Position numbers and translations under genes: made by a program. 64,000 nt of DNA from Bacteroidales bacterium. Lineage in GTDB: Bacteria > Bacteroidota > Bacteroidia > Bacteroidales > P3. The notes beneath the pieces were generated by a model. The model was not told the DNA's origin. It saw only the letters and a program-made list of their open reading frames with translations, and made no database searches. Numbering within the stretch: the first letter of the stretch is position 1; each line of letters starts with the position of its first letter. Location: the NCBI GenBank assembly GCA_017522255.1, contig JAFWZP010000106.1, forward strand, positions 1,390 to 65,389, in the 5' to 3' direction. Shown piece by piece: positions 3,352-62,615 of this stretch.

Positions 3352-3774
3352 GGGAAAATTTCCCTCGTGATGTAGATGAGATTTCCTCGTGATGAAAATT
3401 TGTCCGGATCACGAGGGAGATAAATTTTCCCCGTGAGGTATTTTCATAGCCTTTGTTATGTAGGCAATAAATGGGGGCGAATGCGATTCGCCCGTACGGA
3501 TGCAGGCAGATAATTGTGGGAGCGAATTGTATTCGCCCAACATATTTTACATTTGTAAGTGCCATACTTACGGGGCAAAACTATGGGAGTTTTGGGTCGT
3601 AACCCTAAGGGTTAGGGATGAAAAGTATGGCACTTTTAGCGGCTATGTTGCGGAGTCGAGTCGTCGACGTCGCTCACTCGAGTCGTTGGCGTTTCCCACT
3701 CGAATGGGTGCTATTCCTCGACTCGAGTCCGCCACCTCATCCACTCGAGTCGGCGACGCGGCGGAGTCGAGTCG
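3352..3774. repeat. composite intergenic cluster of word-like direct and inverted repeats
   Basis: Contents: tttcc(c)tcgtgatg / catcacgagg words (3352-3438); hairpin gggcgaat..attcgccc; a 13-bp inverted repeat, aagtgccatactt / aagtatggcactt; and gcggagtcgagtcg at both 3650 and 3761, with actcgagtc words between them. Confidence 0.75.
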
Positions 3775-53167: not shown

Positions 53168-53746
53168 TTAGCAGGTTAAACAGTTTTTTGCTATCCTGAC
53201 GCAGGCATAGCCCAATCCATTAAGCCTTACAGCCACCATAGATGTTTTGTCATCAATATGGCTCACCATTCCTTCCAATCCTCTTAATGGACCTGACATT
53301 ACACACACTTCATCGCCTACATCGATATCTTTCACTATCGTTACTTCCGAGTCGGCATTGTCAAGCATAAATCTTAGTCTGTCGATCTGATCGTCGGGAA
53401 TAGGTGTTGCAAAACCTTTTTCGGCCTCCTTGGTTCCGGGAAGTGCCAACATCTTGTAAACATACGACTGATTTCGCAAAAAAGTCTCTTCATCAACTGT
53501 TACTTTTACAAATACGACCATTGGAATTACTATTCTGTCAATCTTTTTCCTACGGTCGCTCCAATTGTGTATCTCACTCTGGACAGGAACGTATGTATCG
53601 TAACCAAGTTTTGCTAATTTGTTAGATGTCCGCTTTTCGCAGTTCATCTTACACAAAATTGCTATCCAACGCTTCAATACGGCTTCGCCGTCGTTTGTCC
53701 CATCGACAAACGTTCCCCTCCTGATAACTTCATCACACCTATCCAT
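53168..53746 (-). CDS. UpxY-family (NusG-like) transcription antiterminator
   Basis: NGN-like WIAILCKMNCEKRTSNKLAKLGYDTYVPVQ..IVIPMVVFVKV. KOW-like VGDEVCVMSGPLRGLEGMV. Trimmed to the first ATG, because 53764 is TTG. Confidence 0.8.
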   Translation of the reverse strand: MDRCDEVIRRGTFVDGTNDGEAVLKRWIAILCKMNCEKRTSNKLAKLGYDTYVPVQSEIHNWSDRRKKIDRIVIPMVVFVKVTVDEETFLRNQSYVYKMLALPGTKEAEKGFATPIPDDQIDRLRFMLDNADSEVTIVKDIDVGDEVCVMSGPLRGLEGMVSHIDDKTSMVAVRLNGLGYACVRIAKNCLTC

Positions 53747-53776
53747 AGCAATTTTTATTAGCAATAGATTATATAA

Positions 53777-53794
53777 TTTTGAAATGCAAAAGTA
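53777..53794. repeat. left arm of the 18-bp perfect inverted repeat (ttttgaaatgcaaaagta)
   Basis: Its reverse complement is identical to 54967-54984, and 22 of 24 positions match when extended inward. It contains the operon -7 box. Confidence 0.85.
53787..53794 (-). promoter_or_regulatory. -7 box (TACTTTTG on minus strand) for the UpxY-led operon
   Basis: caaaagta on the plus strand, about 40 nt upstream of the ATG at 53746. No TTTG -33 element sits at the expected distance in the present orientation. Confidence 0.55.
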
Positions 53795-53884
53795 AAGTTT
53801 ATTTATAATAGCTTAAATTTGTGCTGACTTATAAAATAGTCATGCAACTATATATTACTAAATATCAATTAAAAAAACACTAAC

Positions 53885-54856
53885 ATGAATAATTTGAATT
53901 GCCAACAAACAAATGAGCCGGCATTACTGCAACAAAAATATCAAAAAAAAACAATAGATATTTCTATAAAAGACCTTATAGTAGGACGGCAAGAAAAACT
54001 GAGAGAACATACCAGAATGGTTGATTTATCGCTACTGAAAAACTTGGAAAATTTTTCAAAGAAAACTACTCTAAATGTAAAATCAATTGATACTGATTTT
54101 TGCTATAAGTTTGCTAACTATTTGGTAAACAAAACCGGTGTAAAAATAAGTACAGCCACCACCTATATGCAAAAACTACATGCTGTTTTGCAGGAAGCTG
54201 TTTATTCGGGATATATAAAAAGCAACCCTATGCCCCCTATAAAAAGATTGTTGCCAAAGTGTATATCACATCAAAAAGCCAACCTCAGCATACACGAAGT
54301 AGAACTACTAAGTAAATGCAATTGTCCTCACCTGATAACTAAGATGGCGTTTTTATTTTCGTGCTATACGGGGTTGAGACTATCTGATATCGAAACTCTT
54401 CAATGGAATAATATTCATAAAAGAAATGGCATATACATGTTGAACAAGATACAGGTTAAAACAAATACCGAAGTATCCATACCACTATGCCGACATGCCC
54501 TGCTTATTCTTAAACAAGTTCAGGATAAAAAGTTATCAAAGGGTGAAAATATATTTCCAATGTATTCTCGCACCACCATATATTCCGATCTAAAACAATG
54601 GGCAAAAAATGCCGGGATAGATAAGCACATAACATTCCATGTGTCAAGAATAACATTTGTAACCCTCTCGATATCGGCAGGAATGAATATGTATGTAATA
54701 TCTAAGCTATGTGGACATAGCAACATAAAAACCACACAAGTATATGCACGAATGATAGACACCACTTATATAACCGCTATCAATATGTTCGAAAGCATAT
54801 TCAAACATAAAAGAAGTAAACAAAAATATATTCAAAAAGTTGAATTATTGTTATAA
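53885..54856 (+). CDS. tyrosine-type site-specific recombinase/integrase
   Basis: GLRLSDI (Arg I), HVSRITFVT (HxxR) and LCGHSNIKTTQVYAR (His..Tyr nucleophile). N-terminal SAM-like domain. Confidence 0.9.
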   Translation: MNNLNCQQTNEPALLQQKYQKKTIDISIKDLIVGRQEKLREHTRMVDLSLLKNLENFSKKTTLNVKSIDTDFCYKFANYLVNKTGVKISTATTYMQKLHAVLQEAVYSGYIKSNPMPPIKRLLPKCISHQKANLSIHEVELLSKCNCPHLITKMAFLFSCYTGLRLSDIETLQWNNIHKRNGIYMLNKIQVKTNTEVSIPLCRHALLILKQVQDKKLSKGENIFPMYSRTTIYSDLKQWAKNAGIDKHITFHVSRITFVTLSISAGMNMYVISKLCGHSNIKTTQVYARMIDTTYITAINMFESIFKHKRSKQKYIQKVELLL

Positions 54857-54943
54857 AATCCTGCTAAAAATAGCATAAAGTGAAAAAAACAATACGATAA
54901 GAATATTGCAAATCAGAATATTACATCTATCTAAAAAATAAAT

Positions 54944-54984
54944 TTTGCCAAATCAGAAATAAATTGTACTTTTGCATTTCAAAA
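54944..54984 (+). promoter_or_regulatory. full Bacteroidetes promoter TTTG-N19-TACTTTTG, overlapping the right arm of the inverted repeat (54967-54984)
   Basis: TTTG at 54944-54947 and TACTTTTG at 54967-54974. It faces rightward into a region without ORFs. Confidence 0.6.
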
Positions 54985-55353
54985 GACAAACAAAGCTATA
55001 TATCAATAGATTAAGTAATATTTTCATATTACAGATAACGATTAAACAACTAACGGTAATATCTAAAAATTGCACAGCTAAGGATTGGTAAAAATTCTAC
55101 TTCGTAGAAGTTGCAATTAAGCCGACAAAGAGTAATGCCTCGGCATCAGCCACTACAAGCAACATCGACTAAGTCAACGGTACGCAAATCACCTACAAAG
55201 CAATTTTTAGGAATTGCGTTTGTGTCTCGCCTTTCGCCGACGAAGTTTCAAAATAAAACCCCTATCTTTTTCCTCGAATGGTTCTCTTACTGTGCCGGAT
55301 ATCAACCTCTAAATCACTCGACAACACCATTCTCTACCTCTTGGAAAGTTTTG

Positions 55354-55385
55354 CAAAGTTACGACCATTTTCTCAATCTACCAAA
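55354..55385 (-). promoter_or_regulatory. full promoter TTTG-N20-TAACTTTG on the minus strand
   Basis: caaagtta at 55354-55361 and caaa at 55382-55385. It faces leftward toward the recombinase segment, and no ORF lies downstream. Confidence 0.5.
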
Positions 55386-55440
55386 TTTTTTTCGAAAAAA
55401 AAATCTCAGAAATTTTTGTTCGAAAACCATGTGGTTTGCA

Positions 55441-55503
55441 GGTCAAAAGTATCCGGTTTATGGGTCAAAACTCCCATGGTTTTAGGTCAAAACCATGGGA
55501 GTT
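55441..55503. repeat. three ggtcaaaa units at 22-nt spacing, plus a 15-bp perfect hairpin (aactcccatggtttt / aaaaccatgggagtt)
   Basis: Read directly. The related word caaaactatgggagtttt occurs at about 3576-3594. Confidence 0.8.
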
Positions 55504-55550
55504 ACAGTGGCTAAACTGCGTGGTTACGCTAAAGCTACTCAAGACACAAC

Positions 55551-55650
55551 GGACTACGGACAACAGTCGGGCGGTAGCCGGCTCATTGCTCACAGGTCTT
55601 TCGTAAACGAAGTTCAAAGGCTGTTGTCCGTTGACGGTTATCTCTAGTCC
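55551..55650. repeat. ~100-nt stem-loop (ggacta+acggacaacag ... ctgttgtccgt...tagtcc)
   Basis: 11-bp perfect stem (55556-55566 / 55621-55631) plus a 6-bp outer stem. Confidence 0.7.
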
Positions 55651-55670
55651 TTAAATCCAAAATTCGACAT

Positions 55671-55768
55671 TGTCAGCCCCGCCTCACCACCGTATCCCCC
55701 CGTATTCCCCCTTATAGGGGAATACTTAAGGGGGATACTTGAGTGGTGGCGGACGGAGGTGCTGACAA
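55671..55768. repeat. nested imperfect palindrome (tgtcagc..caccac gtatccccc gtattcccc / ggggaatac gggggatac gtggtg..gctgaca)
   Basis: Three nested perfect sub-stems read directly. Confidence 0.75.
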
Positions 55769-55962
55769 GTCGCCGCTTTTGGCTACACCGGAATTACGGA
55801 TTAACAGAACTACGGAATTTGGGAGGCTTCGCTGACTCATAACTCGCAGCTCATTGCTTAATGCTTACTACCCACAGCTCTCTAGTCTGCAAAACCTAGT
55901 TGAACCATAGGTAATTACAAGAAAAACAAGACAAAAAGGTAAAGTAGAAATTCGGATATTCG

Positions 55963-55970
55963 TATCTTTG
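55963..55970 (+). promoter_or_regulatory. -7 box TATCTTTG
   Basis: About 290 nt upstream of the ATG at 56258. Candidate promoter for the porZ-like gene. Confidence 0.4.
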
Positions 55971-56257
55971 CAAAACCAAACCGAAAAGTGCGTATACTGT
56001 TAATACGTTGAACGAAAAGACTTTTGCTGCTACCTCACCTCTCTTACATCCTCGCAAAAGTATTTCAATCAACAAAGACACCATGTGTACAACGGCAAGG
56101 GAAAGAGTTATTTGAAATGCTTTAAGGCAACTTATAAAATTTGCCTATAGGGAGAAACTTTCAATTACATTCCTCTCATTTCCATATAAATTTCAACATC
56201 TCCAAATACTAAAACCGACGTTTTGTAGTTTATATAGAGCTTAAAAATCTATTATCA

Positions 56258-58564
56258 ATGAAAAGAATCGGATCCCTAATAATATTATTATCCACAATAT
56301 GTGGCATAGTGTTTTCGCAAAACATAGGACTGGGCAAATGGCGCAGTCATTTCTCGTACGACAAATTATACAAGGTAATACCTGCCGACAACTACATATA
56401 CGCACAAGGTGGCTTAGGACTCTTTTGCTACGACGACGACGAAAAGACAGTAAGCAAACACTCCAAAATAGAAGGTCTTAACGATGTGGATATAAAAACC
56501 GTGGCTTATGACACTGAGACCAAATGTTTGGCCATAGCCTACAAAAACTCCAATATCGACCTGATGATAAATGATGTGGTATACAATATTTCGGACATTA
56601 AGCGCAAAGAGATAAGTGGCGACAAGGCTATCTACAATATCAGCTTTGACAACAAAAAAGCCTACCTTGCCTGCGGTTTTGGAATAGTGGTGATAGACAT
56701 AACCCGGAAAGAAATATTTGATGTATACTACCTTGGTCCCAATGGCACATATATCAAAATAAACGATATAGCTTTTACATCTAACGCCATTGTGGTAGCC
56801 ACCGACGATGGTGTAATGCATATAGACAGGCAAAACCCCTTCCCCAACATAGCCGACAATTGGACTCACGACACTATTTCGGTGTTGGCTCACCAGCAAG
56901 TATGCGACCTACACGTGTTTAACAACAAGCTATTAGCCACCACACATCAAGGTGTCGACAGTTGCACCATATACACCCACGAAGGCGACGACCATTATAT
57001 GCCATGGATAATAGGGAACATAAAATCCGTCGAAAGCACCAATAATGAAGTGATAGTGTCAGCCTATGACCGAGTGATGATTTACGACCGCAACCTACAA
57101 CTCAAAGCCGAAGTAAAGGAAAGCAACACCTCGTGGTTTTCTATGGCCGCTATGCACGCTGCCCTCGACCGCCAAAACAAACTATGGATAGCCCACGAAT
57201 GGGCCGGCATGGTTATCTTTCGCGACTACACAAAGAAAGGTATCGAAACACTTAAACCATCGGGACCACGAAGCGACGACATATACAATCTATCGCCCTA
57301 CGGCAACGGAGTAATACTATCGCCCGGCAGTCGCAGAGGAGACTACTTTGTGGAAGCCAATGTGGCCACATACCAAAACAACGAGTGGACCAACCTCGAC
57401 GGAAGCCAATGCAAAGATACCTCGTGGAACATACTTGATGTAATAATAGACCCTACCAACAATAACAGAATGCTTGCAACATCGTGGCGCAACGGAGTGA
57501 TGGTGATAGAAAACAACAAAGCCATAGATTTATACAACGAAGAAAACACTTCCAATGCCTTATCGGCCTACACCGAAGGCAACTATCGCTCGCTGAGAGT
57601 GGGCGCTTGTGCTGCCGACGAATATAAAAACGTATGGTTTACCAACTCTTTAAAAGAAAATGGTTTGGTGGTACGTCGCAACGATGGCAGCTGGCAAGCT
57701 TTCAACACCCGTAATATGGTAACAGACGAAATATTCCGGATATTGGTGGACAGCATATACAACTATAAATGGTTTTATGGCGAAGGCAACCGCATATATG
57801 TACACGACGGCGAAGACCGTATGGCATACATAAACCCCAACAACGGCAGCAAACTGGAAACATCGAAGGTGAACTGCATAGTGCAAGACCACACCAACGA
57901 ACTATGGATAGGAACCGACAAAGGCATAAAAGTGATATACAACACCTCGTCAGCATTCAAGAATGGAGGCAACGGCGAAATGTCGCCAATAACATGTAGC
58001 AACATATTATACAGCGAAAACGACATAGTGGAATACCTGCTTGCCTACGAAAGTGTAAGCTGTATAGCCGTAGATGGAGCCAACCGCAAATGGATTGGAA
58101 CAGCATCGGGTGGCGTATTCCTCGTTTCGGAAAATGGATTGGAACAACTACAACATTTTTCGGAAAACAACAGCCCGTTGCCCTCCAACAAAATAGTGTC
58201 CATAGCCATATCGCCCGAAACCGGCGAAGTGTTTATAGGCACCGACAAAGGCCTGGTATCGTATAAAGGCACAGCCACCTACGCCACCTCGCAGCCAAGC
58301 CAAGAAATATATGCCTTCCCCAACCCGGTACGCCCCGAATACAATGGCAATATAGCCATAAAAGGATTTACCCGCAATGCCATAGTGCATATAACCGACG
58401 CAAGCGGCAAGGTAGTGTACAGCACCCAAGCCCATGGCGGACAAGCTATATGGAACGGCAAAACCAACCAAGGCATACGTGTGGCAACGGGAGTATACTA
58501 CGTGTTCGCTTCCGACCAAAACGGCAAAAACACATCGGTGGCAAAAATATTATTTGTAAACTAA
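56258..58564 (+). CDS. porZ: PorZ-like T9SS component (double beta-propeller protein with T9SS C-terminal domain)
   Basis: 768 aa with a signal peptide and many two-component-regulator-propeller-type repeats. C-terminal FPNPVRP..GVYYVFASD..AKILFVN. Gene order is porZ-recO. Confidence 0.7.
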   Translation: MKRIGSLIILLSTICGIVFSQNIGLGKWRSHFSYDKLYKVIPADNYIYAQGGLGLFCYDDDEKTVSKHSKIEGLNDVDIKTVAYDTETKCLAIAYKNSNIDLMINDVVYNISDIKRKEISGDKAIYNISFDNKKAYLACGFGIVVIDITRKEIFDVYYLGPNGTYIKINDIAFTSNAIVVATDDGVMHIDRQNPFPNIADNWTHDTISVLAHQQVCDLHVFNNKLLATTHQGVDSCTIYTHEGDDHYMPWIIGNIKSVESTNNEVIVSAYDRVMIYDRNLQLKAEVKESNTSWFSMAAMHAALDRQNKLWIAHEWAGMVIFRDYTKKGIETLKPSGPRSDDIYNLSPYGNGVILSPGSRRGDYFVEANVATYQNNEWTNLDGSQCKDTSWNILDVIIDPTNNNRMLATSWRNGVMVIENNKAIDLYNEENTSNALSAYTEGNYRSLRVGACAADEYKNVWFTNSLKENGLVVRRNDGSWQAFNTRNMVTDEIFRILVDSIYNYKWFYGEGNRIYVHDGEDRMAYINPNNGSKLETSKVNCIVQDHTNELWIGTDKGIKVIYNTSSAFKNGGNGEMSPITCSNILYSENDIVEYLLAYESVSCIAVDGANRKWIGTASGGVFLVSENGLEQLQHFSENNSPLPSNKIVSIAISPETGEVFIGTDKGLVSYKGTATYATSQPSQEIYAFPNPVRPEYNGNIAIKGFTRNAIVHITDASGKVVYSTQAHGGQAIWNGKTNQGIRVATGVYYVFASDQNGKNTSVAKILFVN

Positions 58565-62274: not shown

Positions 62275-62475
62275 AAGGCAACTTCTAAAAATTCCACGTT
62301 TCAGTAAAATAGAAGAATTCTTCTTTAAACTTTTGCGTGCTTTACGTTTTTTGCCGAAATCTTTCTATTTCTTTTTCAATCGCATAGCCCGCTATGCTCA
62401 ATCAAAAGAAAGTAGAAATCTTTTTAGCAAAATTCCGTAAATCACTTGCAAAGCAATTTTTAGAAATTGCCTATA
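62275..62475. mobile_element. second copy of the MITE-like element, carrying a ~105-bp nested palindromic insertion
   Basis: The 66-bp identical core is followed by an insertion at 62341-62446 with tttacg../..cgtaaa ends. The shared tail tgcaaagcaattttt.gaaattgcct then resumes. Confidence 0.55.
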
Positions 62476-62615
62476 AATAATTTGTTCATTCGATTTTTCA
62501 CAACATACTCCAAACACCGATTTATATGCATCGGCTTTGGTCTGTGAATCGCCCACCCCTTCTATAATCTCTATCTTTTGCATCAGTTCCAAATTCTTAA
62601 GGTTTTCGCCAATAG

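Follow-up and report, generated by a model that had tools for sequence, protein, structure and literature searches.

In a 64,000-nucleotide (nt) stretch of Bacteroidales DNA (contig JAFWZP010000106.1, positions 1,390 to 65,389; hereafter the window), the segment 53777-54984 is probably a self-contained invertible promoter cassette that carries its own recombinase and switches an adjoining operon of about 27 kilobases (kb) led by a gene for an UpxY-family antiterminator. This reading is favoured because the inverted repeat that brackets the segment goes beyond chance, the enzyme appears intact, the layout is conserved across a family of related cassettes, the two repeat arms co-vary, and both orientations are found among relatives. 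The general kind of switch is well known in gut Bacteroidales; what is new is that the enzyme is carried inside the piece of DNA that flips.

The segment is 1208 base pairs (bp) long and holds a single open reading frame (ORF) between its arms. The core of the repeat, TTTTGAAATGCAAAAGTA at 53777-53794, is the exact reverse complement of 54967-54984, a perfect match of 18 nt. Similarity continues inward, with 22 of the first 24 positions matching and 33 nt alignable at 88% identity (53777-53809, the left or 5'-side arm, against 54952-54984, the right or 3'-side arm). An initial annotation, made from the sequence alone, had described this repeat, and its coordinates and match counts were reproduced. 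No other perfect inverted repeat of at least 18 nt with arms at most 3 kb apart exists in the window, and no such repeat arose in simulated windows (0/200, first-order Markov). The same annotation had considered that the 18-mer could be a common promoter word. It is not: TTTTGAAATGCAAAAGTA has two sites only in the window, even with up to three mismatches allowed, and is unique to this pair. The window also holds no copy of the repeat between the stop codon of the recombinase gene (54856) and the -33 element described below (54944).

The ORF between the arms (53885-54856, plus strand) encodes the 323-amino-acid (aa) tyrosine recombinase that had been predicted there, and its product matches Pfam Phage_integrase (PF00589, 1.8e-24) and Phage_int_SAM_5 (PF13102). 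An alignment of 39 homologues shows no variation at the catalytic residues R165, K188/K192, H252, R255, H278 and Y287, and the enzyme is, to judge from these features, intact. The protein reached no curated NCBIfam family, with matches to Xer and integron integrases that were sub-threshold only. All recombinase domains found with Pfam and NCBIfam were of the tyrosine type; no serine-recombinase domain was found. Within the segment, at 53816-53823 (plus strand), TAAATTTG may be a -7 box that serves the recombinase gene; it is not kept in other cassettes.

The Bacteroidales promoter consensus consists of a -33 TTTG and a -7 TAnnTTTG(Y) (PMC8748976). Each arm contains the -7 box TACTTTTG facing outward, running leftward from 53794 to 53787 in the left arm and rightward at 54967-54974 in the right arm, while a TTTG 19 nt upstream is found at the right arm only, in agreement with what had been claimed for the two arms. 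The sole complete Bacteroidetes-type promoter of the cassette (54944-54974, plus strand) has its -33 TTTG at 54944-54947 within the segment, a 19-nt spacer and its -7 box within the right arm, and is directed outward to the right. The pattern TTTG-N19-TAnnTTTG occurs four times in the window against an expected 0.74, and two of the three other occurrences precede genes. A consensus search of the window found no complete promoter before upxY in the present orientation.

From this asymmetry, a simple mechanism can be proposed. The recombinase would pair the two arms and invert the 1.2-kb segment. Since both arms hold the -7 box and the predicted start region, with starts expected near 53780 on the minus strand and 54981 on the plus strand, these would be unchanged on both sides after inversion, and inversion would relocate only the -33 side: the -33 element itself, the A/T-rich DNA upstream of it and any read-through from the recombinase gene. 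In the present orientation, the complete promoter would face the non-coding right flank and the upxY side would have a -7 box alone; the 27-kb operon is most likely OFF or low in this state, as read from the promoter layout. After inversion, the complete promoter would lie about 40 nt upstream of upxY, which would presumably be the ON state. The suggestion that inversion carries the sole -33 element to the operon side was already part of the initial annotation, and it is now backed by the layout, the co-variation of the arms, the 3'-side position of the -33 element and the occurrence of both orientations in relatives. Inversion in the window's own strain, catalysis by the 323-aa enzyme and the size of the expression change are what we infer from this arrangement.

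Homologues of the recombinase number in the hundreds, and almost all belong to uncultured Bacteroidales from the guts of ruminants and humans. To survey bracketing repeats, the recombinase gene was located in 190 loci and the best repeat around each was scored. The succession of repeat, recombinase, complete promoter and repeat was found in about 20 cassette types with recombinase identities of 36-99%. Bracketing repeats with scores of 16-136 and spans of 1.05-1.3 kb were present in loci from about 40% identity upward and in one locus at 36%. The scores around some 110 distant homologues (30-40% identity; Segatella copri, Muribaculaceae and others) were 8-13, equal to background, and a crude scan found no convincing canonical small invertons beside them. 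The complete promoter, as TTTG-N19/20-TAnnTTTG, accompanies the arm on the 3' side of the recombinase in about 17 types, no type has it at the 5' arm, and many types share a conserved A/T-rich stretch (...AAGAAAATAAATTTTGC...) upstream of the -33 element.

The comparison of arms across loci also bears on a static explanation, in which the arms are copies of a strong promoter word that drives upxY on one side and a rightward transcript on the other, as two divergent promoters with no recombination. The core common to arms across loci is TGCAAAAGTAAA, that is, the -7 box on the other strand, so that the conserved part of the arm is the Bacteroidetes box TAnnTTTG, as a static promoter pair would have it. 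Furthermore, TTTGCAAA is palindromic, so promoter pairs can mimic short inverted repeats, as 55348-55364 and 55960-55976 do. However, identity continues for 10-12 nt past the -7 box and co-varies between arms across loci; over 12 nt past the box it is 90% between the arms of one locus versus 60% between loci. Recombination sites require such matching, which promoter function alone does not. Moreover, the 18-mer is specific to the pair, the 5' arm never has a -33 element, and in some loci that arm lacks a -7 box yet remains repeat-like (in L018, L025, L028 and L036 the box is gone from the 5' arm and kept in the 3' arm). Together with the inverted junctions seen in relatives, these points have already largely refuted static promoters, which we regard as hardly credible.

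For inversion itself, the initial annotation had proposed looking for the opposite orientation in homologous loci, and this was found in relatives (L190; L191 versus L006; L004 versus L193). For example, two 42-kb ENA contigs (L188 and L189) carry a recombinase 74% identical to the window's and a 16-nt repeat, GAAATGCAAAAGTAAA, in a cassette that is divergent from a four-gene operon. A contig from another run, L190, belongs to the Logan assemblies, which were built with k=31 from 31-mers seen at least twice (PMC12424806). It is 99.9% identical to L188/L189 and ends in the predicted inverted junction, matched at 60/60 nt. In this junction, 30 nt of inner sequence from the 3' side lead into the 16-nt repeat, which is followed by 14 nt of the flank found next to the 5' arm in L188. 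The contig stops at 14 + 16 = 30 nt, or k-1, as it should because the graph must branch if flank plus repeat precedes two inner sequences, and its other end stops at the outer repeat edge. The contig therefore ends where it would be expected to if both orientations were present in the L190 sample. The arithmetic is alike in L165 (76% identity), where 10 nt of flank and a 20-nt repeat add up to 30.

Flanks are also swapped between contigs. The operon of a sigma-like gene, a 118-aa gene and an M48 gene in L191 and L192 has a counterpart in L006 with 94.4% identity over 3839 nt, and the two stand on opposite sides of the cassette, 5' in L191 and 3' in L006. The window's own M48 gene and three of its right-flank non-coding pieces map to L006 on the opposite strand relative to the cassette. 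A 319-nt flank (G, below) changes sides among cassettes that share 98-99% identity with that of the window: L004 has it at the 3' arm, L193 at the 5' arm. Further swaps are seen in L014/L086 versus L013/L015 (91% over 1.3 kb) and in L028 versus L036/L021/L009. On the strength of these assembled sequences, inversion in relatives may be taken as documented.

Some apparent signs of inversion were set aside. Contigs of about 1.2 kb in L005, L180, L181 and L186 were not taken as a sign of heterogeneity: their repeats are at least 30 nt long, and k=31 graphs break there anyway. The argument from short contigs was retained only where the repeat is shorter than k-1 (L190, L165). A 141-nt terminal inverted duplication in L087/L173, considered as a hairpin artefact of inversion, is due to a 174-nt repeat that exceeds the MEGAHIT k. 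This repeat relates to a 55%-identical relative (L169:1284-3538, also L168, L170 and L173), in which the segment is larger (about 2.25 kb) and the repeats, of at least 174 nt, consist of the core TTTACTTTTGCAAyTCAAAAC followed by a leader common to paralogous 301-aa genes. All 19 contigs of this type (19/19) are shorter than 5 kb, and one flank was seen at either arm, but the repeat is longer than the assembler k. The comparison of L168/L169 with L170 is suggestive of inversion, with a misjoin across the long repeat as a possible cause.

Several observations weigh against the proposed switch. For the window's strain, one orientation only was seen; the three contigs that encode exactly this protein match the window at 100% over 8-9 kb and therefore give no independent information on orientation. 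The inverted left junction predicted for the window, AGATTATATAA+TTTTGAAATGCAAAAGTA+CAATTTATTTC, had 0 matches in the JGI metagenome collection, which does not contain the species (the best match in a protein-guided scan had 57% identity), so this result is uninformative. The left arm retains a perfect -7 box, with TTTA in the position of TTTG, and the operon may therefore be merely down-shifted rather than off. Finally, cassettes of the window's type occur in combinations of flanks that are impossible from one two-site inversion.

These combinations come from different samples, in which cassettes 97-99% identical to the window's lie beside four flanks: the UpxY operon, a sigma-like/M48 operon (S; L004, L191), a gene for a 416-aa ATPase (G; L004, L193) and genes for an 80-aa and an AAA_25 protein (T; L191, L193). 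With C for the cassette, the arrangements are S-C-G (L004), S-C-T (L191) and G-C-T (L193), while the window has the UpxY operon on its left. The three arrangements together imply either at least three sites, as in a shufflon, or exchange of cassettes between loci or strains. Homology between contexts always stops at the outer repeat edge, and the cassette is 98% identical where the adjoining genes have 42% protein identity. No target-site duplication was found, the flanks being TATATAA/GACAAAC in the window, AATTAA/GATACTT in L004 and AAGTATC/GTCTAAA in L193.

The cassette might accordingly be read as a portable or multi-site module that recombines with further sites or moves between loci or genomes, serving alternative gene sets, with the window showing one of several possible arrangements. 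Near-identical cassettes at four flanks with a break in homology exactly at the repeat edges would fit this, as would three flank combinations that need at least three sites or exchange, adjoining genes far more diverged than the cassette, the presence of at least four paralogous cassettes in single metagenome-assembled genomes (MAGs) and mosaic cassettes such as that of L191, with its foreign 5' 290 nt. A 10-nt half-site, TTTGAAATGC at 56111-56120, has an orientation fit for a third site. Against this, the contexts come from different samples and possibly different strains or species, no single genome was seen with three sites, and paralogues within a MAG differ in their repeats, which favours private enzyme-site pairs. 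In L006 the half-site does not vary together with the cassette repeat, and it was rejected as a third site; target-site duplications are lacking. A portable or multi-site module would add to an inversion switch rather than replace it, and we consider it unlikely.

The contexts and terminal repeats also call to mind a transposon resembling an insertion sequence (IS), whose arms would be terminal repeats, whose tyrosine recombinase would act as transposase and whose outward promoter would activate neighbours, without inversion in place. Bacteroides IS elements with outward promoters do have terminal inverted repeats and can activate an adjacent gene. Likewise, the cassette has terminal inverted repeats at the exact limits of the conserved unit, is found in several contexts and has an outward promoter at one end. 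However, IS elements have another class of enzyme, target duplications and near-identical copies. The enzyme of the cassette is a tyrosine recombinase rather than a DDE, HUH or serine transposase, its flanks are not duplicated, and its copies within one genome are 60-74% identical with different ends, unlike those of an active IS; the copies of 97-99% identity, in four contexts, come from different samples. The lack of both target-site duplications and a transposase makes a classical IS unlikely. In addition, one flank is joined at the same nucleotide to either arm, which inversion predicts exactly and which insertions would reproduce only by using the same base in both orientations. Also, wherever a locus is annotated on both sides, a gene or operon begins right next to at least one of the arms. 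Taken together, an IS-like transposon is very improbable, and a promoter cassette that inverts in place remains the preferred reading.

Several members of the cassette family are of interest in their own right. At least four paralogous cassettes can coexist in one MAG, where they are 60-74% identical to one another and differ in their repeat ends: L006, L007, L009 and L011 in RGIG9913, and L008, L012, L015 and L017 in RGIG7727. They face unrelated genes, including the M48/sigma operon, HU-HIG triplets, giant proteins and others. In L008 (4555-6282), the cassette lies between divergent giant paralogous ORFs of 1567 and 1596 aa, both cut by the ends of the locus, whose common leader and start (about 220 nt, 93% identity) form an extended inverted repeat. 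This cassette is likely an either/or toggle, in which a single promoter would express one giant gene or the other. The mosaic in L191 (3894-4183) has a first stretch of about 290 nt, covering the 5' untranslated region and the recombinase N-terminus, that is L165/L006-like. Its remainder has 96.7% identity to the window type, a pattern that indicates recombination between cassette variants. In L011 and L182-L185, an IS (transposase start MSKSTHFFGQPVYG) sits about 90 nt after the recombinase stop, before the -33 element, and removes the promoter arm; its end also interrupts L171-L175. L186 is the intact form of the L011/L182-L185 type, with a 30-nt perfect repeat and TTTG-N19-TACTTTTG.

Comparison with known systems places the cassette close to the published switches of this order. 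Bacteroidales invertible promoters with a local tyrosine invertase (Tsr-type) include the BT1927 S-layer switch, capsule loci and invertible promoters that regulate resistance genes (PMC8748976; PMC4611039). Like these, the cassette has the promoter of the phylum (-33 TTTG / -7 TAnnTTTG) on an invertible piece with short inverted repeats, a tyrosine recombinase at the locus with the promoter directly downstream of its gene, and an upxY-led operon as its target. In the published Bacteroidales switches, a small invertible promoter lies outside the invertase gene, for instance 256 bp with 22-bp repeats, and an inverton is described as unable to regulate an invertase encoded near it (PMC8748976; PMC4611039). 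In the window, by contrast, the recombinase gene is part of the 1.2-kb flipping piece, since the partner repeat is found upstream of it, the -7 box belongs to the repeat, and the recombinase is without a curated NCBIfam invertase family. The cassette thus departs from the usual inverton layout, in which the recombinase lies outside an element of a few hundred bp. This layout is a typical rather than a strictly defining feature, and the element is filed here as an inverton variant. The open-access literature yielded no account of a Bacteroidales invertible promoter that contains the gene of its own tyrosine recombinase.

Recombinases encoded within their own invertible segment have been mentioned as an occasional arrangement, for which Hin is the example named (PMC5903667). 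The initial annotation had called the switch Hin-like, which holds for the layout, with recombinase and outward promoter inside the segment, but not for the class of enzyme, which is tyrosine rather than serine. As in the Salmonella Hin/H segment, a repeat, a recombinase gene, an outward promoter and a second repeat are followed by an operon, over about 1 kb and with the enzyme inside. Hin, a serine invertase, depends on an enhancer and on Fis, whereas the cassette enzyme is a tyrosine recombinase, so chemistry and synapsis differ. A Fis-bound enhancer within the segment would not be expected for an enzyme of the tyrosine class. The H-segment promoter is wholly inside its segment and does not overlap hix, unlike that of the cassette, whose -7 box lies in the repeat. 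In Escherichia coli fimS, the tyrosine recombinases FimB and FimE invert a promoter element with short repeats, the orientation of which sets expression of the operon. This element is 314 bp long and is served by two enzymes with directional bias, whose genes lie outside it, unlike the cassette, which holds its recombinase gene within. Shufflons (Rci of IncI plasmids; Bacteroides multi-site gene shuffling) use a tyrosine recombinase and several short sites to produce many arrangements. Multi-site action of this kind is a possible explanation of the three flank combinations; however, shufflons reassort coding segments rather than a promoter, and a single genome with at least three sites was not seen here.

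On the left of the cassette, the candidate controlled operon starts with the UpxY-family gene (53168-53764, minus strand), the start of which lies 13-34 nt past the left arm. Its identity, as proposed initially, is supported by NCBIfam NF033644 (118 bits against a cutoff of 100). The rest of the operon (26957-53154, minus strand) is a run of genes behind upxY that extends to about 26957, also as described before, and brings the whole to about 27 kb. These genes encode an ECF-sigma-like protein (ECF, extracytoplasmic function; 33 bits, below cutoff), the products of small ORFs, three M48 peptidases, seven Hsp70-like ATPases, a DA1-like protein and a radical SAM protein; proteins of 461, 393, 1086 and 921 aa have no family. 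PADLOC returned no defence-system match for the operon proteins, with weak radical-SAM/viperin-like and PDC matches only.

On the right, the region faced by the promoter in the present orientation (54985-56257, plus strand) is a patchwork of short conserved non-coding elements. It had been noted as ORF-free, and indeed no supported ORF was found; the longest, of 124 aa, has a TTG start and no Pfam match. A PorZ-like gene and then recO lie beyond it. A perfect 15-bp hairpin and a terminator-like site at 55458-55503 could terminate rightward transcription. The external minus-strand promoter reported at 55354-55385 is present as a promoter-like site, TTTG-N20-TAACTTTG (55385-55354). The initial annotation had suggested that transcription from it might read into the segment; a terminator-like hairpin stands between the two. 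This site forms part of a second inverted pair, 55348-55364 and 55960-55976 (17 nt, one mismatch), with an outward -7 box in each arm (TCGTAnCTTTGCAAAAC); the TTTG at N20 belongs to the left arm and aims at the cassette (55385-55354, minus strand). The pair could be an invertible piece without a recombinase, or two promoters with the common palindromic TTTGCAAA. The 10-nt match at 56111-56120, which corresponds to the outer 10 nt of the cassette repeat in left-arm orientation, lies at the far end of the non-coding region.

The non-coding pieces are better kept than the genes around them. Those at 55951-56141, 55652-55776 and 55110-55188 are 94-97% identical to pieces in L006, L007 and L193, loci whose genes are only about 74% identical. 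The pieces differ in order and strand between loci, and related ones occur in the window at 62426-62477 and 3553-3613. The 190-nt block 55951-56141 begins just past a -7 box, TATCTTTG, at 55963. It was considered as a structured RNA and rejected, since its fold (z = -0.99) is no better than that of shuffles. No Rfam family passed its gathering threshold anywhere in the window, and 53700-56300, scanned permissively, yielded a chance microRNA match only; no known RNA accounts for the right flank.

If the segment switches as proposed, the 27-kb operon with its UpxY, ECF-sigma-like, Hsp70-like ATPase, M48 and radical SAM genes would be marked as phase-variable, and phase variation strongly hints that an operon carries a cost or comes under pressure from phages or the host. 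The comparison also defines a conserved cassette family in which the invertase lies within its own inverton and the -7 box within the recombination site. Scans limited to small repeat-flanked elements beside an invertase would miss such gene-containing switches of 1.1-1.3 kb; present inverton-search tools may share this limit to some extent. As a compact unit of about 1.2 kb with one enzyme, one promoter, sites of 16-34 nt and many orthogonal variants, the cassette may also be usable as a genetic part for Bacteroidales.

More tentatively, uncultured Bacteroidales of gut and rumen may harbour a family of portable promoter-recombinase modules that invert themselves, with this cassette as its founding example, although we hold this to be somewhat doubtful. 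If true, each module would have its own enzyme, one promoter with its -7 box in the recombination site and private repeat ends, and would toggle between the gene sets that flank it, such as the giant paralogues of L008 or S versus G versus T. Modules could also move between loci or recombine with extra sites. Phase variation in these bacteria would then be a mobile trait that can be inserted before unrelated operons.

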